Counted from the stretch's first letter, positions 4,798 through 55,678 are shown. The stretch: 64,000 bases of DNA from a virus (IMGVR_UViG_3300037296_000055:18505-82504), one strand, 5' to 3'. The notes: generated by a model from the sequence alone, not told the origin. Numbers and translations are program-made.

Positions 4798-4842
4798 AGA
4801 AGATCATTCTTCTATTATAGATACACCCTTTTCCTCACTTTT
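4798..4842 (-). promoter_or_regulatory. class A promoter-like repeat, copy 1
   Basis: 41/45 nt identical to 5809-5853; minus strand reads AAAAGTGAGGAA-N4-GTGTATCTATAATAGAAGAATGATCTTCT; intergenic, upstream of the MazG-like gene. Confidence 0.7.
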
Positions 4843-4847
4843 CTGGG

Positions 4848-5808: not shown

Positions 5809-5853
5809 AGAAGATCATTCTTCTATTATAGATACACTAAATTCCTCACTTTT
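5809..5853 (-). promoter_or_regulatory. class A promoter-like repeat, copy 2
   Basis: Near-identical to 4798-4842; heads the minus-strand gene block. Confidence 0.7.
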
Positions 5854-5864
5854 TACCACGTTTC

Positions 5865-5886
5865 TACCAGGGGACGTTATATGATA
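5865..5886 (+). promoter_or_regulatory. class B phage-RNAP promoter-like repeat, copy 1
   Basis: TACCAGGGGACGTTATATGATA, identical at 5911 and 23300. Confidence 0.75.
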
Positions 5887-5910
5887 TAGGAGTCCCAAAA
5901 CCGGTAGTTT

Positions 5911-5932
5911 TACCAGGGGACGTTATATGATA
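5911..5932 (+). promoter_or_regulatory. class B phage-RNAP promoter-like repeat, copy 2
   Basis: Identical 22-mer 46 bp after copy 1, followed by AGGG. Confidence 0.75.
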
Positions 5933-6305: not shown

Positions 6306-6458
6306 ATGACTTACTCCACATACTTCGCCGGTGCCAACTCTGCTCCAACAGCCAGCGTTGCACCTGATGAACAACAACAACCCAACACCACAACTAAACA
6401 ACCTATCACCAGCTACTCCGAGTACTTCGGTGAAGCGGTGAAAACCATGCTGAAATAA
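6306..6458 (+). CDS. small hypothetical protein (50 aa, not in ORF track)
   Basis: TAAGGT RBS; MTYSTYFAGANS...SYSEYFGEAVKTMLK. Confidence 0.5.
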   Translation: MTYSTYFAGANSAPTASVAPDEQQQPNTTTKQPITSYSEYFGEAVKTMLK

Positions 6459-6470
6459 GGAAACCTGATC

Positions 6471-6878: not shown

Positions 6879-6886
6879 TAAGCATA

Positions 6887-7195: not shown

Positions 7196-7347
7196 TGAGT
7201 AGTAGTAATACAACTGTAAATAAATCAGGCACCTACGCCGCTCTTGCTGCGGGCTTCGTGTTCTGTGTGGGCTATGTTGTGGGCAAAATTGCTCAGGGCA
7301 TGATCCTTGGCATCGGGGTGGCTATTACCCTGCACCTACTGGGCTAG
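7195..7347 (+). CDS. small membrane protein (50 aa, not in ORF track)
   Basis: TGATG overlap; hydrophobic YAALAAGFVFCVGYVVG..MILGIGVAITLHLLG. Confidence 0.5.
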   Translation: MSSSNTTVNKSGTYAALAAGFVFCVGYVVGKIAQGMILGIGVAITLHLLG

Positions 7348-7602
7348 AGCGCCAACCTCTGACACCAGAGGATAGTACCTCCCCCACCACCATCACTCCC
7401 CCCATCCTCAAGGAGACTTCTACTGCTATGGCACACTCTCATGCACCATTGTACAGTGAAAGCGAGGTGATCCGGTATCTCCAAGTACGTCTCTAAAGGA
7501 CACTACTTGGTCAAGGTGCCGAGCCGTTCCTCTAACGTTGATCCGGCACACCCCCACTCGTCTCTACCCCCATCATAACAACCCCCTTGAAAGAACCACA
7601 TC

Positions 7603-7776
7603 ATGTTTAAAGATAACACACCTGTAGAAGAAGTCGTAGTCGCCAAGACCGCCGCTGTTGCACCCAAGCGCTCCAAGGAAGTCCTTGACGCTGTTGATGT
7701 TGTGACGCGTGAGCTGTCTGACATTCCTGGTGGGGATAACATCTCCAACCACATCCGAGCCTTGCTGGAAGTGTAA
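7603..7776 (+). CDS. small hypothetical protein (57 aa, not in ORF track)
   Basis: MFKDNTPVEEVVVAK...; ends 6 nt before TerL. Confidence 0.55.
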   Translation: MFKDNTPVEEVVVAKTAAVAPKRSKEVLDAVDVVTRELSDIPGGDNISNHIRALLEV

Positions 7777-7782
7777 CACACC

Positions 7783-9138
7783 ATGCCCACCGTAGAACTT
7801 CACCGAGCTCAGTCAGAGATTGTCTATGACATGTTCGGACCCAATCCTGAGTGGACCCTCCGCTACGGCGTTGTTGTTGGCTCACGAGGGTTGGGGAAGT
7901 CCTACGTTGCGGCAACCTCAGCTGTCATGGCCATCGCAGAGCTGGAAACCCTCCCCTCTTCTGTTCCCAATAAAAACATCAGCTTGATTTGTGGGTCAAA
8001 CCAACAGGTTGCTGACGTTTATCTTCCTCTTTTCAACTTCGTCTACGGACTAGACCACCCACGACGCTGTGTCAAGCACACGACAGCCCTTGGCCAGGTC
8101 CGCTGGACTTTCAAGAACGGCACCACGCTCTCCCTACGCTCGGCAGAAGTCGCTGAACGGATGCGGGGCACAGGCCAGTACATGGTGATCCTTGACGAGA
8201 TGCCCACCTGGGAACTCAAAGGCTCTAACCACGAGACGGTCTGGGAGTCGATCATCAACCCCACAATCACCACCCGTTGGTCCCCTGAACAAGCCACCGC
8301 TGTTGGAGCTCCTAGCCCCGGTCGCGCTCTGTTCATCGCCTCGCCCCTCGGCAAGGACTACTTCTACGAGCTCTCCATGAACACTATCGTGGATCCTCGC
8401 TGGAAGACCCGTCAGTATACCTATCGCGACTCTCCTCTGCTGTCCCAGAAGACTATCGAGGAAGAGAAGAAATCCATGGACCCCATGCGGTTCGCCCGAG
8501 AGTACGAGGCCTCCTTCGAAGAGTCTGGTGCTCGTGTCTACCATTCGTTCGATCGTGTTATGCATGTTGAGAAAGACTTGGCCCCCTTCGGAGAGACCGA
8601 GACTGTCCATGCCGCTATCGACTTCAACGTTCTGAAGAACTGCACAAGCTTCCATGCCATCCGTGGTGGCCAAATTCACACACTGGAAGAGTCCATTGGT
8701 ACAGCAAATACTCAAGAGCTTGCGGAGCTTATCCGTCGTCGCTTTCCTAAGAACAAGATCATCTGTTACCCTGACCCCTCAGGAGTTGCAAGAAAGACTT
8801 CCGCTGTGGTTGGAGTCACCGACTTTAGTATCCTACGACAGGCAGGCTTCGAAGTTCTAGCAAAGTCTAAGGCCCCTGGTATTACCGACTCTGCCAACGC
8901 TGTGAACAGGATGTTCCTGAACGCTGCTGGAGAGACCAACTGGTATGTCGCTCCTGTCTGCACCCACTTCATCAAGTCTCTGGAACGTACTGTGTGGCTA
9001 GAGAGCCGCCCTGACTCGGCCATCATTGACAAGTCTCTGGACGTGGAACACTTCGGCGACGGTGCTCGCTACTTCGCTGAGTACATGTTCCCCGTAAACT
9101 CCTATCGTACAGCAACCAAGAGAGGCTTTGTGTTCTGA
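7783..9138 (+). CDS. terL: terminase large subunit
   Basis: Walker A GSRGLGKS, Walker B VILDE, FAREYEASF, nuclease AIDFN, YPDPSG, HFGDGARY. Confidence 0.95.
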   Translation: MPTVELHRAQSEIVYDMFGPNPEWTLRYGVVVGSRGLGKSYVAATSAVMAIAELETLPSSVPNKNISLICGSNQQVADVYLPLFNFVYGLDHPRRCVKHTTALGQVRWTFKNGTTLSLRSAEVAERMRGTGQYMVILDEMPTWELKGSNHETVWESIINPTITTRWSPEQATAVGAPSPGRALFIASPLGKDYFYELSMNTIVDPRWKTRQYTYRDSPLLSQKTIEEEKKSMDPMRFAREYEASFEESGARVYHSFDRVMHVEKDLAPFGETETVHAAIDFNVLKNCTSFHAIRGGQIHTLEESIGTANTQELAELIRRRFPKNKIICYPDPSGVARKTSAVVGVTDFSILRQAGFEVLAKSKAPGITDSANAVNRMFLNAAGETNWYVAPVCTHFIKSLERTVWLESRPDSAIIDKSLDVEHFGDGARYFAEYMFPVNSYRTATKRGFVF

Positions 9139-16501: not shown

Positions 16502-17135
16502 ACCGTATAGCTACGTCAAGCCAAAGAACCAAACTCAGATCGATCTCGTTGAGTCGTTGAAAACCAATCCCGTAACCGTTGTACGAGGACCTGCCGGTAC
16601 AGGCAAGACCTTCATGTCAATGGCCACTTACGTTGAGATGCTGCTTTCTTCCAATGAGTTCCGTCAACTTGTGTTCTGCCGCCCAAACGAACCTACCGGA
16701 CGAAGCTTAGGCTCCTTCCCAGGCACCCCTGATGAGAAGCTTGAGCTCTGGCTTAAACCTCTCACAGCTAACCTTGTGGAGCTTCTGCCCAGCACAGAGA
16801 TCACGCGTCTTCGTACGCAGGGTCGACTTGCTTACCAACCTCTTGAAACAATCCGTGGTATGAGCTTTGAGTACAGTCTGCTCCTTGTGGACGAAGCCCA
16901 GAACCTTACCAAGCATGAACTTATTGCCATCGTAACCCGTCTGGGTGAAGGCTCCCGTCTCGTCATCCTCGGTGACCCGGATCAGTCCGACCGTCATCAA
17001 TCAGGTTTGGAGTGGTTAGCCGACTTCTGCAAACACCATAACCTGTCCAGTGGAAACATCGAGTTCGGTCTTGATGATATTGTCCGCTCCGACTTTGTTG
17101 GACAATTCCTCCGAGCCCTTGCCAAGAAAGAGTAA
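16491..17135 (+). CDS. phoH: PhoH-like ATPase
   Basis: GPAGTGKT, RGMSF, VDEAQN, GDPDQSD, DIVRS. Confidence 0.93.
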   Translation: MVNKPYSYVKPKNQTQIDLVESLKTNPVTVVRGPAGTGKTFMSMATYVEMLLSSNEFRQLVFCRPNEPTGRSLGSFPGTPDEKLELWLKPLTANLVELLPSTEITRLRTQGRLAYQPLETIRGMSFEYSLLLVDEAQNLTKHELIAIVTRLGEGSRLVILGDPDQSDRHQSGLEWLADFCKHHNLSSGNIEFGLDDIVRSDFVGQFLRALAKKE

Positions 17136-17141
17136 ACCCTC

Positions 17142-18743
17142 ATGGTACAACGCCCTACAAAACCTCTATCCCAATCCCCTGGTGCTGAGAATGCCCAGTA
17201 TGAGTCTTTCCTCCCTCTGTGGAAGCGAGCCAGGGCGGTAATGAACGGAGAGCATGCCGTAAAGGAAGCTGATGCACGTATTGATCGCATAAAGTTTTCT
17301 AACCTCCTGCTCCCCTTCTCCCCAATGATGGACGACCAGCAGTACGCCTTCTACAAGGCCGAAGCTGAGCTCCCCGGTCTTACCTCTCAGTATGGTAAGG
17401 TCATTGCGGGTGGCCTCCTGCGCCGCCAGCCCACCATCGAGCTCCCTGAGTCTGTTCCTGAAGACGCTAAGACCTGGTTCACCGACGACTTCACTGTTGA
17501 TGGTAAGTCCATGGTCTCCTTCCTGGACGAAGCCCTGTGGGAAGAAGTATGTTCCTCCCGTGCCTGGGTCATTATCGATTATCCTAGCGTGGACAATCCT
17601 GAAGAGCTGACCTCTGAGCAACGTGCAAAGATCCGCCCCTACCCTGTCCTCTGGAAGGCCGAAGATGTCATCAACTGGCAGACTCAGCTGAGCCCCTATA
17701 CCGGTCAGGAGGAGCTCTCTCGCCTGGTCATCCGCTACTACGAAGAAGAGTTCGTGGACAAAGACGCCTTCAGCCCTGAGCTGGTCGAGTACGCTATCGA
17801 CTATTCGCTTGACGCAGAAGGTGATTACCGAGTACGGTACTTCAAACATATCGACAATCAGGCCGTCACCATCACCAACGGCAACATGTCCCGACCTAAC
17901 AACCTTGCCGCTAATGGCGTGGGCGAAGACTGGGACCTGGTACGTACTGTCTACCCGGAAATCCGTGGCGAGATGCTGAAGTCTATTCCTGCCTTCCCTC
18001 TGAACGGTTCTCTCCGTCCCCGTGAGCCCATCCTGATGCCGCTGGTTGACCGTGAGGTCTCCCTGTACAACAAGCTTGCTCACCGTAACCACCTGCTCTA
18101 CACAGCCTCCACCTTCACTCCTGTCTTGTTCACCGACATCCAAGACGAAGAGTTCCTGGACATTGTGCAGCAAGGTCTGGGTACCTACATCCGGCTACGC
18201 CCTGATGACAAGGTAGGGGCTCTGAAGGCCCCTGTTGAGGCACTCTCCGGTCTGGAGTCCGCTATCGCAAGCACCATCGACGAGATGGCCCGGATGGGTA
18301 TCCGTCTACTGTCTCCTGACGGTAATCAAGGTGACTCCGGTGTTGCTCTGGAAATCCGTAACTCTGCTCAGACCTCTCAGCTCGCAACGCTGAACGTGAA
18401 GATCTCTCAGACAATGCGTGACATCCTGTCCCTGATGATCGACTGGAAGTATGACCTCCAGATCGAGCCTCATGACATCGACTTCACTCTTAGTGCTGAC
18501 TTCAACCCTACTCCTATCGGCGAAGCTTGGATGACAATGATCACCGGCTGGTACGATACTGGCAAGATCCCTCGCTCCCTGTGGCTCTCCGTGGCCAAGC
18601 AGAACGACATCATCCCACCTGACTACGATGATGATGAAGGTATGCAGGAGATCGGCAGTGACCCCACCCGGATCGCTGAGACTCCCACAACCCTGGATCC
18701 TGACTCCTTCGAGAGGCCAGCTCCCAAACCCGTCGCAACCTAA
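17142..18743 (+). CDS. portal protein (DUF4055-type)
   Basis: 533 aa; Y..YK..AEL, RPYPVLW.AE.VINW, SGVAL..R..Q...L; position before the head genes. Confidence 0.88.
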   Translation: MVQRPTKPLSQSPGAENAQYESFLPLWKRARAVMNGEHAVKEADARIDRIKFSNLLLPFSPMMDDQQYAFYKAEAELPGLTSQYGKVIAGGLLRRQPTIELPESVPEDAKTWFTDDFTVDGKSMVSFLDEALWEEVCSSRAWVIIDYPSVDNPEELTSEQRAKIRPYPVLWKAEDVINWQTQLSPYTGQEELSRLVIRYYEEEFVDKDAFSPELVEYAIDYSLDAEGDYRVRYFKHIDNQAVTITNGNMSRPNNLAANGVGEDWDLVRTVYPEIRGEMLKSIPAFPLNGSLRPREPILMPLVDREVSLYNKLAHRNHLLYTASTFTPVLFTDIQDEEFLDIVQQGLGTYIRLRPDDKVGALKAPVEALSGLESAIASTIDEMARMGIRLLSPDGNQGDSGVALEIRNSAQTSQLATLNVKISQTMRDILSLMIDWKYDLQIEPHDIDFTLSADFNPTPIGEAWMTMITGWYDTGKIPRSLWLSVAKQNDIIPPDYDDDEGMQEIGSDPTRIAETPTTLDPDSFERPAPKPVAT

Positions 18744-18755
18744 CAGTAGGTACTT

Positions 18756-21700
18756 ATGGAAAATCAAGACATCTTCGATCGGCAGGTAGACCACCTGATC
18801 CGCACTCGTATGTTCACCGAAGAGCTTCAGAACAAAGTCTCGTCCATGTCCGAAGGGCATCGTCGTAGTCTCCTGAACATCTTCCGTACTGGACGACCGA
18901 GTGAGATCCGCCTGGAAGTCAACCGCTACGTGGAGGAAATGAAGTCCTCCATCCGTGGTGGTATGACCGACTACCTTGGAGCGGAGATCTCTTTCCAAAA
19001 GTCAACAGCTCAGCGTTCTGTGGGGAGCTTCTATTCCCTGCAGGATGTTGACCGTGGCAAGGTGGCCAACCGGCTGCTGAACCAGCCTATCACCTTCTCG
19101 CAGACTTCCTCTGTAGGGACAGGCATCCTTCCTTCCCTGGATGCCATGGCCCCTGCCCAAACCTCTCGCCTGAACACCGTGATCCAGAAGGGTCTGTTGG
19201 AAGGCAAGTCAAGGGCCGAGATCGAAGCCTCTCTGCTGAAGACCACCAAGCTGACCGAGAACCAGGCCCGCACCCTGGTCACCACCGGTATTACCCATGC
19301 GCAAGAATTGACCACCCAAGAGTTCTGGGACGCTAACCCTGATGTTCTGTCAGGCTTCGTCTACACAGCAATTCTGGATGGTAACACCACTCGCACCTGC
19401 GGCTCCTTGGATGGCACTGTGTTCCCTGCGGATGCTGTCACCCATCGCCCACCCCTACACTGGAACTGTCGTTCTAGTCTGGTGCCTGTCCTGAAGGACT
19501 ACGACGCTCTGGTTGCCACTGACAGCCCACGCGTCACACAAAGCGCCCTTGCTGACATTCCTCCGAGCAGGTTCAATGGCCAACCACCACTCCGCGAGAA
19601 CTTCGAAGAGTGGTTGCGTCGTCAGCCCTTCAAGCGACAACAATCCTTACTCGGCTCCGAAGATGCTGCCACTCTGTTCCAGAACGGTACGCTCCGGATG
19701 AACGAGTTCTTCACTAAGCTGAAACGTCCTATCTCTATCGGCCAACTCCGCACACTGGATGCCAAGTCCACCTTCTCGTATTCAAAAGACTCTCTGGATG
19801 CTAAGGTACGTGTTGCGGCCACCCGTCCTGCAGATCTTGTTCGTAGCCCTGGCTTGGCCAAAGATCTAAAGGCCCTAATTCTGGCGGACGCCCGAGATGC
19901 CTCTCAGTCAATTTCTCTCACTGACTATCGCGGTGTTACCCTTGGAGGTAAGCGCAGCGTACGTCGTGCTACTTACAATGAGTACGATCCTCGCAACCAC
20001 CAGTATGATCCCTACACCGGCGAGGTTAGAAGTTCATACTACTACAACCCCGACTATGTCTTACTTACAGAGCGCCTTGATGTTATCCAACGATCCCAGG
20101 TACTCTCCAAGCCCCAACGAGAATGGATCACGAAGTTCGTAAACTCTCTGGAGGATGACGTCTCCGTGAACCAGCAGTCCGTGATTGCTGAGACACTACG
20201 TCTTACCTTCGAGCGTGCTGCCCGTGACACCTCCATGGGCTGGAGCGACTATGCCGGTGTTTTCCGGGCCGAGTCCAAGTTTGGTGTGACCAACGTCTCC
20301 CGTATCCTTGACCGACGCTCTCGTGCCGGTGACGAGATGTTCACCCGCTTTGCTGATGTTGATGAGCCTGCCGCTATCCAGATCCTGGGTGAGTGGAAGA
20401 CCTTTGAAGACCTCACTTCTAATCGGAACCGGAACCAACAGTTCATTAGGGACTGGGACAAGCAAGAGGGCCGCGCTCTGGCACGGAGGGTATACTACGG
20501 GCGTGCAGTTGACCTTGCGAAGGGTCGTGTAATAGACGCTCCTGGTGCTCCCACACGGGCCTATTTGCTGGGCCTCCGTCCGAAGGTCAAAGGACCTAAC
20601 AAGGACATTGTCAAGTGGGTCGAGGCCAACATCCCTGGCATCAACACTTTCAAGTTCGGAGCTCTGAAGGGCTCTAACACTGTGGCTGGCTGGATCGAGT
20701 CGGTCCCCGGAGTGAAGCAGTGGAACTCGTTCATGAAGGAATGGGCTAAGCCTTACGATCCGATCCTCTACCGTCTGAAGAATGGACTGAGTGCCAAGGT
20801 ACGTAACATCCTTGACCTTGAGTTCCTGAAGATGAGTGACCGACGTGGTCTGGTTGACCGCTTCATAACTTCCCGAGTTCTTGGGGACAACGAAGACATT
20901 CAGGTGCTGCAGAAGGTGATGAAGACCATCGCCGGAGGGACCATGACTGACTATGACGGTCTTGCCATCACCATCGGTAAGGAACTGTACAAGCAGTATC
21001 GCCCTCTCCGTCCCTGGTACAAGCCTACTCTGCAAGACTACCACCGGGATGGTGCGGGTATCCTTGAGTCTCTCCGTGAGAACGGTACGCTCCGAGTGAT
21101 GTCCCGTGGCGTGAACCGTCGTGGAGTTCTTGACCTTGATACAGGTCGTGTAGGACCACCTTTCCGAGACACCGTGTCCCGTGAGGTGACCATCCTTGAT
21201 AAGGACCTGGTTCAGCTCCAGCGAGCTAACCGTGAGATCATCGTTGCTGACCGTGTGGGTATCACAGGTCCCTCCAACGAGTATCACGTTCGTGTGGGTA
21301 AGAAAGAGTACTTCGACGCTTACGGCAACAACACTGGTCGTTCTGTGATCACCAGGTCTGCAGCGCCGTTCTACGATGAGAACCTGATCGATAAAGACTT
21401 CGCTGACATGCTCAATCATACCATGTCTTCCAAATACCAGACCGATAACGACTTCTCCCGGTTCATGCTGGACCTTGCCCGCTTCCGCGATGTTCGTGGT
21501 CGTGTGGACTACTATGACGACCTCAACCTGTTCCGCCACGACATCATCAAGCGAGGAGAGCAAGGCTTTGGGCTTATGGAAACTGTAAAGTTCCACAATG
21601 CTCGACAGAAGCCCTTCTCCGTGATGGCTCGTATCGACGGTCGAGGCCGTGTCTACTACAATGGCTATCTGACCCCCACAGGCGGTGAGATGGTCCGACC

Positions 21701-23276
21701 CTTCCTGAACTCTGCCAAGGCTGTGCCTATGACGCCAGGGGGACTACAACAACTTCGTGCTACCATCGGTGTTCTGACAGGTAGCTCCACTGAAACCCTA
21801 ACAGATGCTGGACGCTACGCCTCCTTCTACAAGAACGAGAAATCAATCTTGGAGATCGGTCGGCTCATGCAAGCAACCACTCAGCGAGATCGTCGTATCC
21901 GTGAGTTCCTCGAACATCCTCTCATCCGCGCAACGGACGGTGAGGAGGTGGCCAAGCTAGGCCGCTTTGCTCTGGAATACGCACGTATCCACGATCACAT
22001 GGGCGGTGACTTCACGGATCTACGCAGGCTCTCGTTGTACGAGACGCGTCTGATGTCCGAGGTCGATGCCAGTGCCAGCGCACTACAAATGATTTCACTT
22101 GCCACAGGTGACCGCCAAGCAGCACTCTTGTCTAACGTTCTTCCCACAACTCGGAAGCAGCGGATCTATGACATTGTTGCTCAGGAAGTTGCCAGTGACC
22201 CTCGGTTCCTGAAGATCATGGAAGAAACCGGACTTGACCTGAACTGGGAAGACCTTCAAAAGGCTGCCAAGTATCACGTCCTTGTTTCCTACTATGGTGC
22301 CGGGAGCACAGGCCAGCGTGCCCGTGTTACTGCCGAACTTGTGAACATCCTGAAGAAACGAAACGTGGGCTACATTACACGTTCTGAACAGCTTGCGGTG
22401 AACCGCGCCCTTACTGACAACATCAAGACAGCAACCGCAATGGGAGCTGAGGAGACTGTTGATGCCCTTACCTCGTTCAAGCGTGAGCTGAATGATCTGG
22501 TCAAATCAGGAGAGCGTCCGTCCACAGCAATGTTCACTGAAGCGGCTGAGATGCATCCAGACGTCTTCAACTTTCTTGATAAGCTGTCCCGTCCAACGGC
22601 AGATCCCTTCGTCGGTCCCGAGACCTTCAAAGATATCGCTGTCCTGTTGTCCGAGAAGCTGGAAGAACAAACCCCGAGGGCTTCCCAGTACATCAAATTC
22701 TGGAAGAAGGCTGCCCAGCGGTTTGCAGAAGAGACCAACACGGTCGACGTCCCCTGGGTTACTTTCGACGGAAAGCAGCTATGGCAGAGGTATCGTCCTA
22801 AGGTCCAAGAGTCAATACGTTTCCGTGATCCTGTGTCGAACCGCTTCGTGCGGAACGTGTATCAGGAGGCAGCGGAGAGCGCCACACTGCTTGGCAAGGG
22901 TTCCATCGGCGATGTTCGCCTAGGGGCTGGAGTCAACGGTACCCACATGAATGACGCCTCGATCGTGAGGATGTTCCACCTGTGGGGTAAGAAGAACGGT
23001 ATCCAGACGGGCACCATTCATGACGCTTTCTTCGTGAACCTAAATCACCTTGACGACTCTGTCCAGACGCTTCTTGAGATCTACGCTAAGGCCTCTCAGG
23101 CCCACCAGATCGAGAACACGATGCTTGCCATGCTTAAGGAAGGCATGACCAAGTCCTCGTACAACGAACTGCTGGCGACCGCGAGAGAACTCGGTTTGAT
23201 AGGTCAAACTCTTGACCCGAACGAGATCTTACGTATCCCGAACGCTAACGAGTCCCGCTACGGTTTCGGCCCCTAA
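18756..23276 (+). CDS. MuF/SPP1-gp7 minor head domain fused to T7-like single-subunit RNA polymerase (candidate virion RNAP)
   Basis: N-terminal YTAILDGNTT..C..LDG..RPPLHWNCRS; C-terminal DGRGRVY, motif A VDASASALQ, motif B K-x7-YG, NGTHMNDA, motif C IHDAF. Confidence 0.9.
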   Translation: MENQDIFDRQVDHLIRTRMFTEELQNKVSSMSEGHRRSLLNIFRTGRPSEIRLEVNRYVEEMKSSIRGGMTDYLGAEISFQKSTAQRSVGSFYSLQDVDRGKVANRLLNQPITFSQTSSVGTGILPSLDAMAPAQTSRLNTVIQKGLLEGKSRAEIEASLLKTTKLTENQARTLVTTGITHAQELTTQEFWDANPDVLSGFVYTAILDGNTTRTCGSLDGTVFPADAVTHRPPLHWNCRSSLVPVLKDYDALVATDSPRVTQSALADIPPSRFNGQPPLRENFEEWLRRQPFKRQQSLLGSEDAATLFQNGTLRMNEFFTKLKRPISIGQLRTLDAKSTFSYSKDSLDAKVRVAATRPADLVRSPGLAKDLKALILADARDASQSISLTDYRGVTLGGKRSVRRATYNEYDPRNHQYDPYTGEVRSSYYYNPDYVLLTERLDVIQRSQVLSKPQREWITKFVNSLEDDVSVNQQSVIAETLRLTFERAARDTSMGWSDYAGVFRAESKFGVTNVSRILDRRSRAGDEMFTRFADVDEPAAIQILGEWKTFEDLTSNRNRNQQFIRDWDKQEGRALARRVYYGRAVDLAKGRVIDAPGAPTRAYLLGLRPKVKGPNKDIVKWVEANIPGINTFKFGALKGSNTVAGWIESVPGVKQWNSFMKEWAKPYDPILYRLKNGLSAKVRNILDLEFLKMSDRRGLVDRFITSRVLGDNEDIQVLQKVMKTIAGGTMTDYDGLAITIGKELYKQYRPLRPWYKPTLQDYHRDGAGILESLRENGTLRVMSRGVNRRGVLDLDTGRVGPPFRDTVSREVTILDKDLVQLQRANREIIVADRVGITGPSNEYHVRVGKKEYFDAYGNNTGRSVITRSAAPFYDENLIDKDFADMLNHTMSSKYQTDNDFSRFMLDLARFRDVRGRVDYYDDLNLFRHDIIKRGEQGFGLMETVKFHNARQKPFSVMARIDGRGRVYYNGYLTPTGGEMVRPFLNSAKAVPMTPGGLQQLRATIGVLTGSSTETLTDAGRYASFYKNEKSILEIGRLMQATTQRDRRIREFLEHPLIRATDGEEVAKLGRFALEYARIHDHMGGDFTDLRRLSLYETRLMSEVDASASALQMISLATGDRQAALLSNVLPTTRKQRIYDIVAQEVASDPRFLKIMEETGLDLNWEDLQKAAKYHVLVSYYGAGSTGQRARVTAELVNILKKRNVGYITRSEQLAVNRALTDNIKTATAMGAEETVDALTSFKRELNDLVKSGERPSTAMFTEAAEMHPDVFNFLDKLSRPTADPFVGPETFKDIAVLLSEKLEEQTPRASQYIKFWKKAAQRFAEETNTVDVPWVTFDGKQLWQRYRPKVQESIRFRDPVSNRFVRNVYQEAAESATLLGKGSIGDVRLGAGVNGTHMNDASIVRMFHLWGKKNGIQTGTIHDAFFVNLNHLDDSVQTLLEIYAKASQAHQIENTMLAMLKEGMTKSSYNELLATARELGLIGQTLDPNEILRIPNANESRYGFGP

Positions 23277-23299
23277 AAGTGATGATTTTATGTCATTTC

Positions 23300-23321
23300 T
23301 ACCAGGGGACGTTATATGATA
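23300..23321 (+). promoter_or_regulatory. class B phage-RNAP promoter-like repeat, copy 3
   Basis: Identical 22-mer followed by GGGG; upstream of scaffold and capsid. Confidence 0.78.
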
Positions 23322-23497
23322 GGGGTGGAGTATTTATGCTCCCCCCTGCCCCCGGTTGATCGATGCTGATGATCGAAACTTCATCATTCATCCTTCATTC
23401 CTCCCCCAAGATTATCTAATGATGATAATCATGAAACCCTTCCTTGGGACTGTGTCCCTAACCTTGTCAATAGCTGTGCTACTGGAGAACTACTACT

Positions 23498-24160
23498 ATG
23501 CCTGACGATATTGAAAACACCGAAACTGATACCGGTAACGAAGAGACTGAGCTGGAGCTTTCCGAAGCCCAACTGGCCATGTTCGATAAGCTTGTCAAAG
23601 CCCGTTCTGAAGAGAACCTGTCTAAGATGAAGACTAACATGGACCGTATGTCTGAAGAGCGTGATCAAGCGATCCGCGAGAAAGCCCGTTTTGAAGAAGC
23701 TGAAACTGTGCGCAAGCAAGAACAGCTCGAGAAGGACGGTAAGATCCAAGAGTCCCTGGAGATGCAGCTGACTGCTCTCAAAGAGAAAAACAAGCTGCTC
23801 AATGACCGTATCTCAACAGAGAGTCGTTCCCGAAACCTTAGCTCTGCCCTACGCAGCGTTGACTTCCGAAATGACCGTGCTGCTGAGCTGGCAGAGATGG
23901 CAATCGTTCCCCAACTGATCCAAGACAAGGACGGTAACTGGGTTCACAAATCGGGTATTTCAATCAGTGAATTCGTCAAGACTTACTTCTCTGACGAAGA
24001 CAATGAATACCTGCTGAAACCAAAACAATCACGTGGCACTGGCGACGTACCCAACCCCGGAACCAAGTCGGACAAAGCTCCCGCTTCTCTCTCCGGTGTT
24101 TCAAGCTCCAAGATGCTTGAGCTCGTTCGAGCAGGTAAAGTCGGTCGTGGTGTCAAGTAA
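23498..24160 (+). CDS. capsid scaffolding protein
   Basis: Acidic N-terminus, long coiled coil, position before the capsid gene. Confidence 0.8.
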   Translation: MPDDIENTETDTGNEETELELSEAQLAMFDKLVKARSEENLSKMKTNMDRMSEERDQAIREKARFEEAETVRKQEQLEKDGKIQESLEMQLTALKEKNKLLNDRISTESRSRNLSSALRSVDFRNDRAAELAEMAIVPQLIQDKDGNWVHKSGISISEFVKTYFSDEDNEYLLKPKQSRGTGDVPNPGTKSDKAPASLSGVSSSKMLELVRAGKVGRGVK

Positions 24161-24184
24161 CACACACACCTAAGGAAATAACAA

Positions 24185-25282
24185 ATGGTTATCACCAACA
24201 CAGCCTTCCAAGACATCGAAGTCGCGATCACCGCGTATTCCGATGAGCAGTACACGGAAGCCCGTAAACTAAACTCCACCGGTCTGGTGTCCAGCTCTGC
24301 TGACATCGACACGACCATGGAGTCGTTCATCGGCCAAATGCGCTGGTACAAGACGATCGACGCGAACTTCAACACTCCGTCGCTCGTAACTCCAACTGAC
24401 GGTACCGTGACTGACGTCTCGACCGAAGTTGCCAAGTACATCAAGTCCATGCAGAGCTTCGGTGCTCGCCAGGTCAACCTGCAGAAGGTTGTTACCCAGG
24501 AAGATGGTCTTGAGAAAGTCGCACGTGACTTCTCCGAACTGCAATCGCAGAACGAAGACGCTGCTGTTAAAGCCGTCCTGACAGGCGTTGCTGGGGCTGA
24601 GACTGGCACTGGTATCACCGGTGGCATCGTCGGCTTCGACACTGAGGCCAACGCAACAACCGGTATGTTCGTGGACATGAACGCTGCTGGCGCTTACGGC
24701 GCTGTGGTTGCTTCTGCCGCTAACGGTCGTCGTTTGTTCGACAGCTCGGTCGCCGGTGCTGCTCGTGGCGAGCGTCTGTTCCGTGCCATCGGCATGGGCT
24801 TTAAAGACTATGAGCCTGATTGGGCTTACATGGTCACGACCCCTGAGACAATGGCTGACCTCCGTGCAGCTAACCTTGTGGACGACACGACCGTCACCGA
24901 CGGTAACCTGGAATTCGCAACCATCTTCGGTGGCAAGTTCCGTCTGATCCAGTCCCGCTGGAACCAGGGTGACTTCTCCTCGGCCAGCTCGCTGAACACC
25001 TACTCCAAGCGCACAACCTTCATCGTGAAGCCCGGTGCGATCGTCTGGAACCCAATCCAGCTGGAGATGCCTACCGAAATCGACCGGAATGCCAAAGCCT
25101 ATCTGGGCGGTGGTACGACCGAGATTTGGTACCGTTGGGGCTACGTCGCACACCCACGCGGCTATAGCTGGTCCGGCGCTGAGAACGTCTTCGCGAACCC
25201 TGCCTCCCTGGCAGCTGGCGCAAGCTGGGAGCGTAAGTACGACCCTCTGAACCTGTCGATCCTGCCAATCTTCCACTCCTAA
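24185..25282 (+). CDS. major capsid protein
   Basis: 365 aa; TEIDRN..GGG.T..WYRWGYVAHP.GYSW..W.R pattern; strong codon bias. Confidence 0.9.
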   Translation: MVITNTAFQDIEVAITAYSDEQYTEARKLNSTGLVSSSADIDTTMESFIGQMRWYKTIDANFNTPSLVTPTDGTVTDVSTEVAKYIKSMQSFGARQVNLQKVVTQEDGLEKVARDFSELQSQNEDAAVKAVLTGVAGAETGTGITGGIVGFDTEANATTGMFVDMNAAGAYGAVVASAANGRRLFDSSVAGAARGERLFRAIGMGFKDYEPDWAYMVTTPETMADLRAANLVDDTTVTDGNLEFATIFGGKFRLIQSRWNQGDFSSASSLNTYSKRTTFIVKPGAIVWNPIQLEMPTEIDRNAKAYLGGGTTEIWYRWGYVAHPRGYSWSGAENVFANPASLAAGASWERKYDPLNLSILPIFHS

Positions 25283-28373: not shown

Positions 28374-31300
28374 GTGGCAGTCACCATTGAATTCGACGCT
28401 AACGTACTCCCTGCACAGCGGGGAATACGAAACCTTGATCGTTCCATGGACACCCTCATGTCCTCGGCCAATAAAGCAACACGCTCTACTGGCAAGCTGA
28501 ACGACCTTAGTACCCTGAAAGCTCAGCGCTCTCTCGATACTATGAACAAATCTTTGAAGAGCATGGAGAAGCAAGCTTCTTCAACCAAACGTATGATGAT
28601 GGGCATGATTGCCAGCGTCGGTGCCGGTATGTCCGTCACAGCGCTCGCACGTACCGCCGACTCATACAAGAACATGACCAACAAGCTGATGTCCATGGGG
28701 CAATCCACCGGCGAAGCTCGGGATACTCTCCTGGACCTCTCTGACGTGGCAGCTCGTACCCGTACACCTCTGGCTGACATGGCCTCCCTGTATGCCAAGG
28801 CTTCCCTCGCAGCTAACGACCTCGGAGCCTCGCAGGCTGACATCATGCAGTTCACCGAGAACATCGGTAACGCCCTTGGTTCCTCCGGTACTTCCGCAAC
28901 CTCCGCAGCTGGCGCACTCTTGCAGCTGGGTCAGGCTCTGGGCGGTACTCTGGTTCAGGCCGAGGAATTCAACTCGATCCTTGATGGTTCGTTCGCCGTG
29001 GCTCAGGCCGCTGCTGACGGTATCGAAGCAGCTGGTGGCTCCGTTGCCAAGCTGAACCGTATGGTCAAGGACCAAAAAGTCACTCCCCAGATGCTCTATC
29101 AGGGCATCATGTCTCAGTCGGAACAACTTGCTGAGAAGATGGGTAAGACGACTTCCACCATCGGTCAAGCCTTTGAAGTTCTACGCAACCGCTGGACCCT
29201 GTTCATTGGTACTCTGGACCTCACCTATGGCGTGTCCACCGGTGTCTCCAACATCATTCTCAGGATCGCTGACGCGGTCAACTACCTCGCACGGAACATG
29301 GAGCTGATCGAGATCCCGATCAAGACGTTCCTGACCCTGCTCGCTGTCATCCCCCTCATGCTGGGCTTCATGGTCGTTGATCCGATCAAGGCCAAGATCG
29401 CAGAGATGCGGGAAGCCTTCGATAGCTTCCTGGGCGGTAACGGCATCAGCTTCGAGGGGCTGAAGTCTGCCTTCTCTAACCTGAAAGCCTCGTTCCCTGG
29501 CACGATGGACTTTGCCGGAAACCTGTTCAAGCAGCTCTGGGAAACCATCAAGCTCTACGGCGCTGGAATTGGCGACTCTGTCAAGGTACTTGGGGCCTAC
29601 GTCAAGTTCGAGTTCCAACAGCTCTGGGCGTCCTTCGCCCTGAAGTTCCCTGACTTCTCCATCAAGGTCAAGGAGTACGCCACCAAGACGGTCGAGTACG
29701 TCAAGTGGATGGTCGAGATGCTCAAGTCCCTTGCTGTGGGTGTCAAGGACTCCATCGGTGGGTTCTTCGCTGACATCGACTTCGACGCCGCCTTTGGTCT
29801 GGACGAAGGTGTCTTTGACTCCATCACCGGCAAGGTGACTTCCAAGGTCAAGGGTATCCGTGACGCCATCTCCGGTCTGTTCGGTCCTGCGCGTGAAGCG
29901 CCGAGAGGTAACTTCCTGGAAGTAATGGCTCAGCGGATCAAGGAGTCCAAGGAAGACCCTCTACTGCAGAAGTCCAACTTCATCAAGGACACGATCCTGG
30001 ATGCTACTGGCTTTTCCATCGGTGAGATCGAGAACGCTGAAGGTCTGGGCATCCAGATCGACAAAGTCCTTGGTAACGCTGAAGGCCAAACCAAAGTCCT
30101 GGACCTGATCTTTGACCGTAGTGGTGCCAAAGCTCGTCTGAACATGCTGCTGATCCAGAACGCTCTGATCTCGTTCGGTCAAGCCATCATCCACCCTATC
30201 AAGACCATTTCCGAGGGCTTCTCGAAAGCCTTCAACTCGACCGAGCGTGCCTTTGATACTGGCATGTTCGCCATCGGCATCAAGAACTTCGCAGAGTCCC
30301 TGCGTAACTTGTCTATCGCTTCCATCGTCATGACCCACTACAAAGAGTCCCTGCGGGCTCTGACCATGACCTTTGGCTCTTCTATCCGTGGTACCCTGGC
30401 CGTTCTTGGTCTGGTCGTCATGGGCATCATGCAGCTCCCTGGCCTGTTCGGTCACGTTCTGGCAACCCTGAAGGTTGTCGGCGAATACGTGGGCGAGATC
30501 CTGGGCGGTATCTGGGAAGGGTTCGCCCTCACAGACATCGGCGAGGCTGTCAAGGATAGCTTCAAAAGTGTCAAAGACTTCGGTGCTGATCTCCTGGACG
30601 CCATGGGTCTGGAGCGTCTGAAGGACGGCTTCAGGTCTGTCAAAGAAGCCATGGAGAACATCTTCGGTGACTTCTCCGGCACTGTCGGTATCACCAGCCT
30701 TGTTGCTCTGGGTTCTGCCCTGGCAATGGTGGTCTGGCGTACCGGTGCTCTGGGCATTGCCTTCAAGCAAGTCTCCCTGGGTGCTACCGCGCTGATGACC
30801 GGTAACTCTCTGCTGACCCGCTCCCTCCGGGGTGTGGCCAGTGGTTTCTTCCTCTGGATTTCTGTCTTCAACCTCCTACCTGACCTGATGCGCTTTGCCG
30901 CAAAGTTCTTGCCGGAAGAGATGGCAACGATCGTGAAGGACGCGGCTGAGGAACTGTCTGACTTTCCGATCCTGATCAAAGACCTGTTCCTGAAAGGCTT
31001 CAAGAACCTCGAAGATATCGAGTGGGGCGAAGTCGGAACTAACATCGCTGAGCAACTGTCCAAGGCCCTTCAGAAGGGTGCTGAGGCGCAGGGCTGGGTC
31101 GATGACCAAGGTCAGAAGATCTGGGAAAAGCTGATGAACTTTGATGGTCGGTCCGCGCTGGCCAACATCAAGGGCAAGCTGCGTAGCCTGTATCAGGGCA
31201 TCGTGAGCCTTGTCAAAGGTATCTTCTCGGTAATCACGTTCCCCGCAAAGATCTTCCAGTTCGATGCTAACGTTATCCTGGCTGCTGCTTCTGCTCTGGG

Positions 31301-34300
31301 TCTCTTGTTCATCAAGGGCTTCCGGGACGGTCTGCTGCGTGCTGCCAAGGTCACTATCGGTCTGGGCATCCTGCTTCCGATGTTTGACAGTGGCTCCATG
31401 CGTCGAGTGGTTTACGGCTATGCTTCTGGCATCGTCGGTATCCTGTTCGAAGCTCTGGGCAAAGAGTTCGAGTCGGTTGGCTGGGATGAAATGAACTCAC
31501 GGGTGCTTGACAAGATCCTGACTCCTCCGAAAGAGGGAGACACGATGGTTGGGAACTACATCCGTAAAGTCGGCAACATCATGAAGAACATCGGCGCTAC
31601 GCTGATCCTCTCCGTGATGGACAACCTGGGCTTCAGTGAAGAAACTGGCAACTGGGTGGCCGAACAGTTCTCCGGCTCCATCGGTGGTGGTCTTGTTCTG
31701 GGTGCAGCAATGCTCCTGTCCGGCACTGCTCGTGGTGTTATCTTCGGAAGTCTGAAAGCACTCTTCGGTGCCAAGATGATGAAGATGGCCTTCGAACACT
31801 GGGGCGACACTACTGAAGATGGTATGAAGCACTTCGCACGGGGTATCCGTGGTAGTGTGATCCGTCTGATCGGTGTTGCTGGAGGCATGCTAGGTTACGG
31901 TATCGGTCAGCACATCGCTGATCGTATGGACCTTAGCGGCGTCGAACGTATGTTCACTGTGGGTCTGTCCACTCTGTTGGGCTTCATCCTTCCGCAGATG
32001 TTCGGAACTGCTCTCTTCGGCATGATGGCAACCCGCTGGGCCGCTGTCATGGCTCGCTTCGCCACTTTCGGTGCGAGTTCCTTCGGCCAAGTTCTGGGTC
32101 GTATCTTCTCCCTCAAGGGCGCTGCTCTTGCTGGTGGTACGTTCCTGACTCTGGACGGTCTGTTCGGTGGAATGACCGGGCTCTCCGAGCAGATGGAGAA
32201 AGGCCTGTTCGCCGCAATCTCCATCGGTCTCGCAGGTGCTTCCCGCTTCATGCCTGACCTTCTGGGTCGTTGGTGGCGTCAAGTTGGTCTCTACATGTCC
32301 ATCAGCCTCTACGGCATGCTGGCACCTCTGGGAGCCGCTCTGCAACGTCAGCTCACAACCACTCTAGGTCGCGCATTCCTGAATGCGGGTCCTGCTCTAG
32401 GTTCCCTTATCGGTGGCGTGTTCCGAGGCCTAAACCTTGGCTCCGTGATCGGTATGATCATTGGTCAGAACCTCCAAGACGCAAGCATCGGTGACATCAT
32501 CCAACGGGTGCTGTATGCCACTGTTGCGGGTATGGTACTAGGTGCAGGCTGGAAGAAATCTCTGGCCCTGTCCGTGGTCTACGCAATCATCGAAGCGTGG
32601 AACAACCCTGAGATCCAGAACGCCGTTTCAGGTCTGGAAGGTATCCTGCAAGGGTTCCTGAACGAGATGGGCTTCGACGTTGAGCTCTCTGGCTTCACCA
32701 ACAACATCGGCATGACTATCACGGACGCGCTGTCCGAGAACAAGCTGGGTTCCTTCATCCTGAAGAACTGGCAGACCGTCTTGCCCGCAATGTTGAGCAG
32801 TGCAGTCCGTAAGATGTCCTTCCCCGCACTAGGGGCGGCGCTGCTTGACGGCTTGGCAAAGTCCTTCGTTGGTGACTCCAACCTCCCTGCTGAATTGCAG
32901 GCTGAGCTGGATGACGTCTTCTCTGACGCGACCCTTGCTATGGGTGTTGCTGGTACTGTTGGTACGGCTGTCGGTGGTCCATTCGTGGGCATCGGCATGG
33001 GTATTGCTGCTGGTATCATCACTGGCATGATGTCCTACTTCAACTCAGGTCTTCCTGGTTCCATGGTTTCCGACGCGATCGGTAACATGGTTGCCAAGGG
33101 CCTCCGTGGTACTATGGGCGATACTGTTGCGGACGCTATGCTCCGTGCAGGTAACCTGATGAACTCCGGGAAGGACGGTCCCGTCAATGACTATGAGCTG
33201 GCAATCCAGCCCTACATTGACCAAGACTACATCACTCCTGAGATCGAGGCCACCGCTAAGGCTGCGATGGAGGCTCTGCAAGCCACGCTTGACCGTCGCT
33301 CCGATGGCTACGCTGGTCTGGAAGTGTTCGACTCGATGGTCGCCAACCTGGCCACCACTCGTGCCGCGATCGAAGGGTTCACCAACGACATCGGCGCAAT
33401 GAATGCTGCTGCAGACCTTGCTGCTAGCCGGATTGCTGGTCTGGGTGAGAACCTTGCCGCTCGTCCTGCAACCTCAGACCGTCAGAGCGATCGTGCTAAT
33501 GACGTCCTGGGTGAGATCCAGCCTAAGGTTTCTCCGGACGCCTTCGCTGATCTTGTGCAGCAAGCCCTTGACGCTAAGCTGGAGATTGAGCAAGTCTTCA
33601 TCGACGCGTTGGACACGACCTCTATCACTACCGGGCTGGAGACTTCTGTCTCTGTTGCGGACATGACACCTGACACTTCTCCGATCACGAACGCGTTCGG
33701 TCAGATGTTCGGTGACTTGGCAACTCGCTCTATCGCTGAGGGCGCGGGCTTCGCTCGTAACCTTACCGATCCTCTGCCTCCTGCGATGCAGGGCGCGGCT
33801 GACTCTGCCATCAACATGGTCGAGACCTCTCTGAACAGCAACGCTCAGCGTCTTGGTCAGGACTTCGCCAACACCCTCGTGACTGGCATCAAGGGCGTCT
33901 TTGGTTCCACAACCATCGCGGCTCCGACCATCTCGGCCCCCAAGCTGAGCTATGGTGCAACGACCTCGAAGGCCCCTCCCGCAGGTGGTCGTCCGAGTGA
34001 GTTCTCCACAGGTGGTTCCGTCTTCGGCCCTGGCACAGGCACCTCCGACAGCATCCCCGCGCTGTTGTCCAACGGTGAGTTTGTGATCAATGCCAAGGAC
34101 ACTTCCAAGAACCTGGCTCTGCTGAAAGCGATCAACACCGGGAAAGACATCTCTCGGTTCGCTGCTGGAGGTATGGCCGGTCAACGTCGTCAGGTTGTAC
34201 AACGCTTCAAGACGGGCACTGATGAGCCTGCCAAGGCGAAGTACTCCTACACTGAGGACTTTGAAGGTCCGGCTGCTGGCTGGGCTGACTGGATCAGTGA

Positions 34301-48095: not shown

Positions 48096-48688
48096 TCGTC
48101 GATCATGCGGAAGTACAGCCGACGGGTCGGAGCCTCCTGCGTGACGAATTCGGGGTGCGGTTGGAAGCAGAGGAATTGTTCCTCAGCGTAGAAGATTGCT
48201 TCCGGGTCTTGTTGTGGCTCATTCTCGACCACACCAACATTCTCGCGCCGGGTGGACAAGCCGTCAGCGAAGGCCAACAGGTCAGCCCCCTCCGACGCAG
48301 GGATCATCATCTGGTGGTGAACCGAGTTGACCCGGTGTACCGAGCCGTCAGGAACATACGTGATGTCGTGGTACCCACGGTGCCCTGAGATGTCCTGCCA
48401 CATGGAGCCGCCCGCAATGATGTTCAGGAGCTGGCCACCACGACATACCCCCAGGAACTTCTTCTTCCGGCGGAAGGCTTTGATCAGGGCCAACTCACGT
48501 GCATCACGCTCGTCAGTCCAGTAGGACGTTGGGTGAGGCTCCAGACCGTAGAGCTTAGGGTTGAGGTCGGAACCCCCTGTCAGCTGGATGTAGTCAGCTT
48601 CCTCCGGACCCCCCACAACAGTCCAGCCCTCCTCCGTGAACATCTCCGGATAGGTAGGACCCGCTGACGCGATGTAAACTGTCTTCAT
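48083..48688 (-). CDS. class I glutamine amidotransferase / peptidase C26 (gamma-glutamyl hydrolase-like)
   Basis: LTGGSDL.P..YG, RD..E, GVCRGGQLLN, VNSVHHQ, FQPHPE. Confidence 0.9.
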   Translation of the reverse strand: MKTVYIASAGPTYPEMFTEEGWTVVGGPEEADYIQLTGGSDLNPKLYGLEPHPTSYWTDERDARELALIKAFRRKKKFLGVCRGGQLLNIIAGGSMWQDISGHRGYHDITYVPDGSVHRVNSVHHQMMIPASEGADLLAFADGLSTRRENVGVVENEPQQDPEAIFYAEEQFLCFQPHPEFVTQEAPTRRLYFRMIDEWFA

Positions 48689-49160
48689 AAATCACCTGTT
48701 TGCTTTGGATGTTTGCGGCTTGCATAAGCTTGGATGAACGTGTCCAACGCTTTCCATAGTGCGCAAACTGGTCCTTCGGGGGCTGAACGTGTACGATACG
48801 CTTCACCCTTGCCTGGATCAGTCGAGCAGTGCACTTGGCGCAGGGGAACCGGGTGATGTACACCGTTGCCCCCTCCACCGAAGTGTTAGCATTCAGCATG
48901 GCGTTCTCTTCCGCGTGGATGACCACATCGTCTTTGAACGACTTGTCGAGGTATAGTTTGGGATCATCAGGGATGCCCCGAGGGAACCCGTTGTAGCCCA
49001 GACTCAGGACTTGGTTCCGATCATTAGTGATCACACAGCCCACCTTACGATGAGGGTCCTTGGACCACTGTGCGACCATAGAGGCCATGGCCAGGAACCG
49101 AAGCTCCCAGCCTGTTGCCACGCCTACACTACGCTGCCGCGTTGTCGACTTCATCAGCAT
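48594..49160 (-). CDS. dCMP deaminase
   Basis: SKDP..KVGCVI, GYNGFPRG, HAEENA, PCAKC. Confidence 0.92.
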   Translation of the reverse strand: MLMKSTTRQRSVGVATGWELRFLAMASMVAQWSKDPHRKVGCVITNDRNQVLSLGYNGFPRGIPDDPKLYLDKSFKDDVVIHAEENAMLNANTSVEGATVYITRFPCAKCTARLIQARVKRIVHVQPPKDQFAHYGKRWTRSSKLMQAANIQSKQVIYEDSLHRVSGSYLSGDVHGGGLDCCGGSGGS

Positions 49161-55662: not shown

Positions 55663-55678
55663 TAACGTCCCCTGGTAG
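55663..55678 (-). promoter_or_regulatory. class B promoter-like repeat, variant copy 4
   Basis: Minus strand CTACCAGGGGACGTTA, 16-nt core identical to copies 1 and 3; upstream of nrdH. Confidence 0.7.

Follow-up and report, generated by a model that had tools for sequence, protein, structure and literature searches.

The window analysed here is a 64,000-nucleotide (nt) stretch of viral DNA, bases 18505–82504 of the complete 82,504-bp record IMGVR_UViG_3300037296_000055 (an 82.5 kb genome; positions refer to the window unless given as genome positions). Between its portal and scaffold genes lies a single uninterrupted open reading frame (ORF) of 1506 amino acids (aa) that joins a MuF (SPP1 gp7-like) minor head domain, through a helical linker, to a T7-type RNA polymerase (RNAP) (Table 1). 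An original prediction, made from the sequence alone, had described this ORF between portal and scaffold and had proposed that its MuF domain is a packaging and ejection tag for an early RNAP in a siphovirus. The ORF and both neighbours were found as described, the profile and structure searches that it had suggested for the two halves recovered MuF and T7-type RNA_pol, respectively, and we consider the gene product almost certainly a MuF–T7-type RNAP fusion. It is the sole MuF protein encoded in the whole genome.

The MuF domain is built of four long helices and a small alpha/beta unit with an invariant LD..T..C...PPLHWNCRS, and the signature YTAILDG..RPPLHWNCRS, predicted at about 19350–19480, occupies aa 203–240 (nt 19362–19475). 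The Pfam profile Phage_Mu_F (PF04233) matches aa 139–242 above its gathering score (E-value 3.8e-9, 37.7 bits against a cut-off of 29.6), and PHROGs returns the head morphogenesis family phrog_241 at 1.7e-49. A model of aa 1–560 (predicted local distance difference test, pLDDT, of 84) matched 104 predicted viral minor capsid or head morphogenesis proteins at E <= 0.001, with the MuF–ADP-ribosyltransferase (MuF-ART) fusion of Xanthomonas phage Xp12 among the closest folds; against the PDB, Foldseek returned only helical bundles for the same model (best E 0.05) and matched no solved MuF structure. Membership of PF04233 is thus indicated by the profile score, by the position right after the portal gene and by a fold common to other MuF proteins. 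The linker is conserved, its ‘mid’ segment being present in 80 of 80 IMG/VR loci that carry the fusion, and no known fold or family was matched to it in the PDB with the aa 1–560 query, the linker not having been searched alone.

Structurally, the remainder of the protein resembles T7 RNAP along its whole length. The Pfam RNA_pol profile (PF00940) matches aa 1093–1443 above its gathering score (E-value 1.3e-8, 34.6 bits against a cut-off of 22), PHROGs returns RNA polymerase at 1.9e-25, and a profile of 36 homologues compared with the PDB retrieves T7 RNAP at E 1.3e-17 in five collinear blocks. The RNAP part comprises an N-terminal domain, thumb, palm, fingers and a specificity-loop hairpin (aa ~1331–1372). 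In an AlphaFold model of aa 340–1506 built on 36 homologues (pLDDT 82.8, predicted template modelling score 0.78), the strands of that hairpin (model 992–1033) correspond to the T7 specificity-loop region, and T7 RNAP is the best PDB match by Foldseek (E 5e-20). VIA-align pairs model residues 209–1166 (ORF aa 548–1505) with T7 RNAP residues 29–883 at a Z-score of 30.6, the 610 aligned residues running from model 212 to 1165 and from T7 35 to 882, compared with Z 26–28 for mitochondrial RNAPs, 17.6 for N4 RNAPII and 17 for the N4 mini-virion RNAP (mini-vRNAP). Because the alignment covers T7 29–883, the C-terminal 960 aa represent a complete T7-type polymerase and not just a palm fragment.

The polymerase motifs lie where they had been predicted, all to within a codon: DGRGRVY starts at D961 (nt 21636), motif A VDASASALQ at V1103 (nt 22062, against a predicted ~22065), motif B K-x7-YG at nt 22269 and motif C IHDAF at I1421 (nt 23016). 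Alignments of 24–36 homologues, the most distant of them 18% identical, show H1397/D1400 and the DxRGR..PTGGE motif to be invariant alongside the catalytic residues listed in Table 1. With the profile score, the two catalytic Asp, the motif B Lys and Tyr, and a complete fold that includes the specificity loop, the protein falls within PF00940; by every feature tested, the fusion belongs to both the MuF and the T7-like RNAP families, and its polymerase is complete and apparently active. Membership of the N4-like vRNAP (gp50) family was also considered and rejected, since the fold is nearer to T7 (Z 30.6 versus 17), there is no Pfam peptidase domain and the virion type is another; the sole PHROG match to an N4-like RNAP was marginal (1.4e-4).

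Table 1 Features of the fusion locus and of the putative promoters in the window (+, forward strand; -, reverse strand; MCP, major capsid protein).
Feature	Position	Strand	Basis or remark
Class 2 promoter, copy 3	genome 17943	-	Outside the window, ~575 bases left of its start
Class 2 promoter, copy 2	4798..4845	-	Repeated element
Class 2 promoter, copy 1	5809..5856	-	Head of the leftward block; AAAAAGTGAGGAA-N-GTGTATCTATAAT then AGAAGA-ATGA-TCTTCT
Two tandem class 1 promoters	5866..5925	+	Back to back with copy 1 of class 2; directed at the structural block, which includes the fusion gene
Portal protein gene	17142..18743	+	phrog_145 at 3.8e-58; directly 5' of the fusion in 63 of 80 loci
MuF–RNAP fusion gene	18756..23276	+	Single ORF, 1506 aa; contiguous in an independent contig
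MuF / SPP1 gp7-like minor head domain, aa 1–345	18756..19790	+	PF04233, phrog_241, fold matches
Helical linker domain, aa 346–547	19791..20396	+	pLDDT mostly 80–95; outside the T7-aligned range
Complete T7-like single-subunit RNAP, aa 548–1506	20397..23273	+	VIA-align, Foldseek, profile against PDB
Motif A, catalytic Asp D1104 (= T7 D537)	22065..22067	+	Invariant
Motif B, K1172 (= T7 K631), Y1180-G1181 (= T7 Y639-G640)	22269..22298	+	Invariant; same 8-residue spacing
Motif C, H1422-D1423 (= T7 H811-D812)	23019..23024	+	Invariant
Class 1 promoter	23301..23330	+	24 nt after the fusion stop, 5' of scaffold and MCP genes; then a GGGGTGGAG...CTCCCCCC stem
Scaffold and MCP genes	23498..25282	+	Directly 3' of the fusion gene; phrog_206, homology, synteny
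dCMP/dCTP deaminase homologue	48594..49160	-	43% identical to Dcd of DSS3_VP1
Class 1 promoter core	55663..55676	-	Leftward replication block

The fusion is not a product of assembly. A Logan contig from a salt-lake metagenome run, which may be the source sample of the window, assembled with a different assembler, spans 17000–24500 in one piece with 0 differences, and the fusion recurs in hundreds of independent contigs; an assembly artefact, which the original prediction had named as one way in which it could fail, was therefore rejected. That salt-lake run is the one DNA run found to hold the stretch, and none of the sequencing runs listed as holding the sequence was an RNA run.

Evolutionarily, the gene marks out a group of its own. 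A word-indexed search gave 212 protein clusters, nearly all of them 1450–1600 aa long and containing the two Pfam domains; their contigs reach 60–90 kb, and their uniform name is ‘SPP1 gp7 family head morphogenesis protein’. An exhaustive phmmer search against 1.84 billion representatives returned 126 proteins, in which the polymerase part was practically always preceded by ~350–600 residues; since no canonical T7-like RNAPs were among them, we regard the polymerase part as a narrow, divergent clade. The MuF, linker and RNAP segments are contiguous in all 80 IMG/VR loci, and the order portal–fusion–scaffold–MCP, whose recurrence had been put forward as a check, is kept wherever the contig reaches. 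Within the phage collection searched, cultured members are limited to the roseophages DSS3_VP1 and DSS3_PM1 (Naomviridae), and DSS3_VP1 gp108, annotated only as ‘head morphogenesis’, is 40.5% identical to the fusion over its full length. The gene is also found in ‘EBPR siphovirus 1’, where an HNH endonuclease gene splits it (L002 9198–10118), and other relatives have insertions of 1–2 kb within the polymerase part or immediately behind it (L061 11506–12612, L064 3203–4309, L083 3155–5949 and L010 10186–12169), which are probably mobile introns or inteins.

The fusion is accompanied by a second, separate RNAP. Outside the window, at genome 8746–10932 (-) (L003:1423–3609, -), lies the gene of a canonical T7-like RNAP of 728 aa (PF00940, E 3e-74) that is 42% identical to DSS3_VP1 gp080, annotated ‘RNA polymerase’, and both polymerases are present in 6 of 6 genomes (this phage, DSS3_VP1 and the four large relatives G001–G004). 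The two enzymes of this phage share only ~23% identity, in short stretches, and are thus not redundant copies. Across 5 genomes, a small sample that makes both comparisons weak, conservation in the fusion RNAP is higher in the specificity loop than in the rest of that protein (58.6 versus 51.6%), and in the second RNAP it is lower in the loop than elsewhere (42.6 versus 46.6%), which would weakly fit a conserved promoter for the former and a drifting class 1 promoter for the latter.

Two classes of putative promoters were found by k-mer counting. The first to be expected in infection, class 2 (early), reads AAAAAGTGAG(A/G)AA-N-GTGTATCTATAAT followed by the hairpin AGAAGA-ATGA-TCTTCT, with the general form AAAAAGTGAGAAAA-N-ATCTATAAT, and occurs in exactly three copies in the genome (24355, 23344 and 17943), all on the reverse strand and none more than 6.5 kb into the leftward block. 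The window contains the spaced pattern twice, and none of 100 shuffled versions contains it; 0 copies in shuffles likewise stand against the 3 of the genome. A sigma-70 scan of window 4500–8000 gave 0 sigma-70-type sites, the scan being blank at class 2 because the element has no -35 element; it has no TGn either. The same 35-nt consensus with identical spacing stands at the start of the early blocks of DSS3_VP1, G001 and G004 and is present in many loci, always 5' of and co-oriented with the second RNAP gene. In the early region of DSS3_VP1 a repeat search had missed the element; k-mer counting and the spaced pattern recovered its copies, at 35793 and 36240, before the gp096–gp080 early block.

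When IMG/VR was scanned for the class 2 pattern, 63 of the 80 stretches fetched belonged to this phage family, including all of those with 2–4 copies; many of the copies are situated between the tape-measure and second RNAP genes, and the family consensus from 84 distinct copies is aAAAAAGTGAGaAAAataa.GcATCTATAATGa. The other 17 stretches (e.g., L103, L104, L107 and L112) hold a single match and have no proteins in common with the family; positions left free in the search pattern are conserved in the family copies only, so most of these orphan matches are probably due to chance. A perfect stem of at least 5 pairs at or just after TATAAT accompanies 50% of copies, against 3% in shuffles, and, being frequent but of 17 different sequences, the hairpin appears to be a common, variable add-on. 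A sub-variant of class 2 (L060 22406, L067 13636 and others) has GTGAGAAAA...GCATC replaced by GTGGGG(G)TTTT..(C)ACCC, in which GGGG can pair with CCCC; this could be either half-site co-variation or a small upstream hairpin.

Class 1 (middle/late) promoters have the core ACCAGGGGACGTTA followed by (T/A)A(T/A)..G, in five perfect copies and two with one mismatch, always co-oriented with the genes; one core copy lies inside the second RNAP gene (genome 9623, -). DSS3_VP1 has its own version, TAGGGTGCGTTAAAGAGGGGG, in at least 7 copies, two of them in tandem before the portal gene, and that of G001 is CCAGGGGACGCTAAAGAGAGA. In most relatives a search of the gap after the fusion gene did not find the core, other motifs being present there, and it is therefore lineage-specific and unusable as a family marker. 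Both promoter classes have a TA-rich end before a purine start, which we take to resemble SP6, T3 and T7 promoters, as a lead only.

Around class 1 we also noted that, at window 23331–23365 and 55620–55650 (-), the promoter is followed by a shared element, ATGCTCCCCCCTGCCC(C/G)CCCC..GGTT, preceded by a complementary G-rich run, an arrangement that suggests a conserved stem-loop in the 5' leader of class 1 transcripts. In relatives (L012–L068), many of the gaps extending 100–250 nt past the fusion stop have TTATTTGTAATAGCC(T/C)AT right after the stop codon, and the same gaps have one or two short CTGTG-loop hairpins (e.g., CAAGCTGTGCTTG, GTCTGTGAC and GGCTGTGCC) just 5' of the scaffold ribosome-binding site. 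Together they might represent a promoter specific to the lineage and a stem-loop for processing or stabilisation.

From these observations we infer packaging, ejection, activity and a promoter for each polymerase, and we posit that the fusion is probably the injected early virion RNAP of an N4-like two-polymerase relay with a new architecture. The fusion gene would be expressed late, from class 1 promoters, and the MuF domain would dock its product to the portal protein, the expected partner, so that a few copies come to lie inside the procapsid, as for SPP1 gp7 and MuF–toxin fusions. At infection, the fusion would pass from the head through the long tail, either together with the DNA or before it. 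Its T7-type RNAP would then transcribe the early block from the class 2 promoters that head it, two or three in number and strictly conserved, with transcripts starting near the following G and often running into a 5' hairpin. The early block includes the gene of the canonical 728-aa second RNAP, which in turn would serve the replication and structural genes, that of the fusion included, through their lineage-specific class 1 promoters. For the first steps there is precedent: SPP1 gp7 binds the portal strongly, by which a few copies of it come to be inside the procapsid, and it aids the start of infection (PMC6316719), and gp7-like proteins carry C-terminal cargo proposed to reach the host (PMC5512222).

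The order of the genes and the conservation of the promoters argue for this relay. Since class 2 precedes the early block with the second RNAP gene, whatever reads it must be present at time zero, and since class 1 precedes the replication, structural and fusion genes, these are not the first targets of an injected enzyme. Class 2 is kept nearly letter for letter across phages of differing G+C content and habitat, is restricted to the family and has no -35 element, which points to a reader encoded by the family and not to the sigma-70 of many hosts. Of the original interpretation, the architecture, a MuF domain and a T7-type RNAP in the MuF slot of a siphovirus, is therefore confirmed, and the proposed function of an RNAP tagged for packaging and ejection has gained support from the sole MuF protein, the invariant catalytic residues, the second RNAP gene and a family-specific early promoter unlike sigma-70 promoters, and still has the standing of a proposal. 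The second RNAP, which lies outside the window, the promoters and the kinship with the uracil-DNA Naomviridae had no place in that interpretation.

Several points weigh against the relay. Our literature search found no data on virion proteins, transcripts or biochemistry for this phage or its cultured relatives, and the DSS3_VP1 paper does not report a virion protein analysis. Every class 2 copy contains a perfect TATAAT, such that use by the host RNAP, alone or with an extra factor, is possible, and the proposed pairing of promoters with polymerases is read from gene order and from the logic of conservation. Moreover, a folded polymerase of ~110 kDa must traverse a long, narrow tail, for which only N4 and P23-45 offer precedent. 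Lastly, a start just past TATAAT would put the conserved upstream element at about -20 to -33. T7 RNAP has a footprint that reaches only to -17, and recognition would thus call for extra contacts.

The perfect TATAAT is also the starting point for a different division of labour, in which the fusion is packaged, host sigma-70 RNAP reads class 2 and the injected RNAP has another first task, for example pulling the genome in or priming replication. Such roles are familiar: in T7, the RNAP gene is preceded by three early promoters that the host enzyme reads, the T7 and N4 polymerases pull the genome into the cell by transcription, and T7 and mitochondrial RNAPs prime replication. In the same direction, SPP1 gp7 acts on the start of infection and not on assembly (PMC6316719). 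However, the lack of a -35 element or TGn, the blank sigma-70 scan, the retention of the AAAAAGTGAGAAAA block and of a fixed 12-nt spacing across phages of very different G+C content and habitat, and the near confinement of the pattern to the family in IMG/VR all speak for a phage-encoded reader, and we regard host reading of class 2 as unlikely.

That the fusion gene sits in a late operon behind class 1 promoters might instead mean that its product is never ejected and works as a late polymerase in the producing cell, perhaps tethered to the procapsid, or is cleaved such that only MuF is packaged. The second RNAP, however, already fits the middle and late promoters, the fusion is kept in one frame in several hundred homologues, the genome of this phage has no separate MuF gene, no prohead protease gene was recognised among the annotated neighbours of the fusion, and the cargo domains of MuF proteins are usually interpreted as effectors for injection (PMC5512222), which together make this alternative distinctly improbable. 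Finally, although the polymerase part diverges strongly from canonical T7-like RNAPs (phmmer barely finds them, and identity to the phage's own second RNAP is ~23%), the idea that it is a catalytically dead relic, retained only as structural material or internal protein of the head, is hardly credible, given that both metal-binding Asp, the motif B Lys and Tyr, H1397/D1400 and DxRGR are invariant family-wide, that the whole fold is kept, specificity loop included, and that homing-endonuclease- or intron-like insertions, which target essential genes, occur in some relatives.

Returning to the relay and extending it to the relatives, we lean, with some reserve, towards a large, globally distributed family of long-tailed phages, including the Naomviridae, whose DNA contains deoxyuridine (dU), that would inject a MuF-tethered T7-type RNAP, read AAAAAGTGAGAAAA-N-ATCTATAAT, possibly with the help of the linker, and hand over to a second RNAP.

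The nature of the DNA template may matter here, as dU replaces deoxythymidine (dT) in DSS3_VP1 and DSS3_PM1 (PMC8323127), and the deoxycytidine tri- and monophosphate (dCTP/dCMP) deaminase and the deoxythymidine monophosphate (dTMP) phosphatase of these phages have been characterised (PMC12697855). This phage, DSS3_VP1, G001 and G004 all encode ribonucleotide reductase and a dC-nucleotide deaminase, and thymidylate synthase (ThyA or ThyX) was not found in any of the four, which is compatible with dU-DNA across the family but is no proof of it. Searches with PF01966 and PF13023 found no HD-type dTMP phosphatase homologue in this phage and recovered one, weakly, in DSS3_VP1 only; a 40%-identical ‘phosphoesterase’ was rejected as a candidate, being a metallophosphatase and not an HD enzyme. 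If the family does have dU-DNA, a self-carried RNAP that starts on dU templates would parallel the virion RNAPs of PBS2 and AR9.

Regarding the surroundings, the genes 5' of the fusion encode the large terminase, an Ig-domain protein resembling head decoration proteins, a lysozyme and PhoH, and those on its 3' side are the scaffold gene (23498–24160) and an MCP homologue (24185–25282) that is 51% identical to the major head protein of DSS3_VP1. Further downstream, a 2348-aa ORF (28374–35420, +) is partly homologous to the DSS3_VP1 tape measure protein and implies a very long tail, and a cluster at 41048–44573 (-) encodes an amidoligase (PF12224), a phiEco32-like COOH-NH2 ligase (PF14395) and a glutamine amidotransferase (PF13522), which could form a nucleotide- or peptide-modifying pathway. 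A 127-bp ‘direct terminal repeat’ is present at window 63874–64000 and genome 1–127; since 127 bp is a common assembler k-mer overlap, we did not take it as evidence of true genome ends, and it probably marks a circular or circularly permuted assembly.

Virion RNAPs are known from N4-like podoviruses, crAss-like phages, jumbo phages of the phiKZ/AR9 type and, as a tape-measure fusion, from P23-45. Those of the uracil-DNA phages PBS2 and AR9 are multisubunit enzymes with a fold unrelated to that of the fusion RNAP. The original prediction had named the N4-like, crAss-like and phiKZ-like phages, a list to which AR9/PBS2 and the tape-measure-fused enzyme of P23-45 (PMC10770324) have to be added. 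A catalogue that includes MuF fusions places virion RNAP modules only in N4-like phages and has no RNAP among the MuF partners (PMC5512222), a full-text literature search (subscription journals lying outside its scope) returned no description of a MuF–RNAP fusion, and the DSS3_VP1 papers do not mention an RNA polymerase; given its absence from the catalogue and from the literature searched, we regard the combination as new within a known kind of system.

If the proposal holds, MuF tethering would be a third, independently evolved route of RNAP packaging, and the first in a siphovirus for an enzyme of the T7 type. Infection would be independent of host RNAP from the first minute, and MuF, a common head protein, could carry the transcription machinery of the phage itself and not only toxins. 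It would also explain how gene expression starts in widespread environmental siphoviruses and in uracil-DNA roseophages. In practical terms, the product of the fusion gene has only the name ‘SPP1 gp7 family head morphogenesis protein’ in hundreds of database entries. The compact cascade of two polymerases and two orthogonal promoter sets would be accessible in the cultured pair DSS3_VP1/Ruegeria pomeroyi.

Among known systems, the relay built on gp50 of N4 (Schitoviridae) is similar in having a single-subunit T7-family RNAP in the capsid (as we propose here), about three early promoters with which a hairpin is associated, and a second T7-like phage RNAP that takes over. By contrast, N4 gp50 is a podovirus protein of 3500 aa that lacks MuF and has a zincin-like peptidase domain and domains of its own for injection and encapsidation (PMC5512222), and its polymerase core is structurally more distant from the fusion RNAP than that of T7 (Z 17 versus 30.6). 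N4 promoters are hairpins upstream of the start on a single-stranded template, whereas class 2 is a linear, bipartite element with a variable downstream hairpin, and late genes, read in N4 by the host enzyme, here appear to be read by the second phage RNAP. T7 RNAP itself shares the full fold (29–883), motifs A, B and C and the specificity-loop hairpin, at 16–19% identity, but lacks an N-terminal fusion, is not part of the virion and is synthesised once infection has begun, from promoters that the host enzyme reads.

The Thermus phage P23-45 is likewise a siphovirus, whose RNAP is fused to a virion protein released from the particle at infection and transcribes the gene of a second, non-virion phage RNAP (PMC10770324), both of which we propose for the fusion; the P23-45 enzyme, however, is a two-barrel RNAP, kin to the cellular multisubunit enzymes, on the tape measure, as opposed to a T7-type right-hand polymerase on the head protein MuF. 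Another related group is the MuF–cargo fusions (toxins, ART, PBECR RNases and RelA/SpoT), which have the same N-terminal signature and gene position and a C-terminal cargo thought to be injected (PMC5512222). The cargo here, an RNAP of ~960 aa with a 200-aa linker, is far larger than those described and, in place of a toxin or host modifier, would serve the phage's own gene expression.

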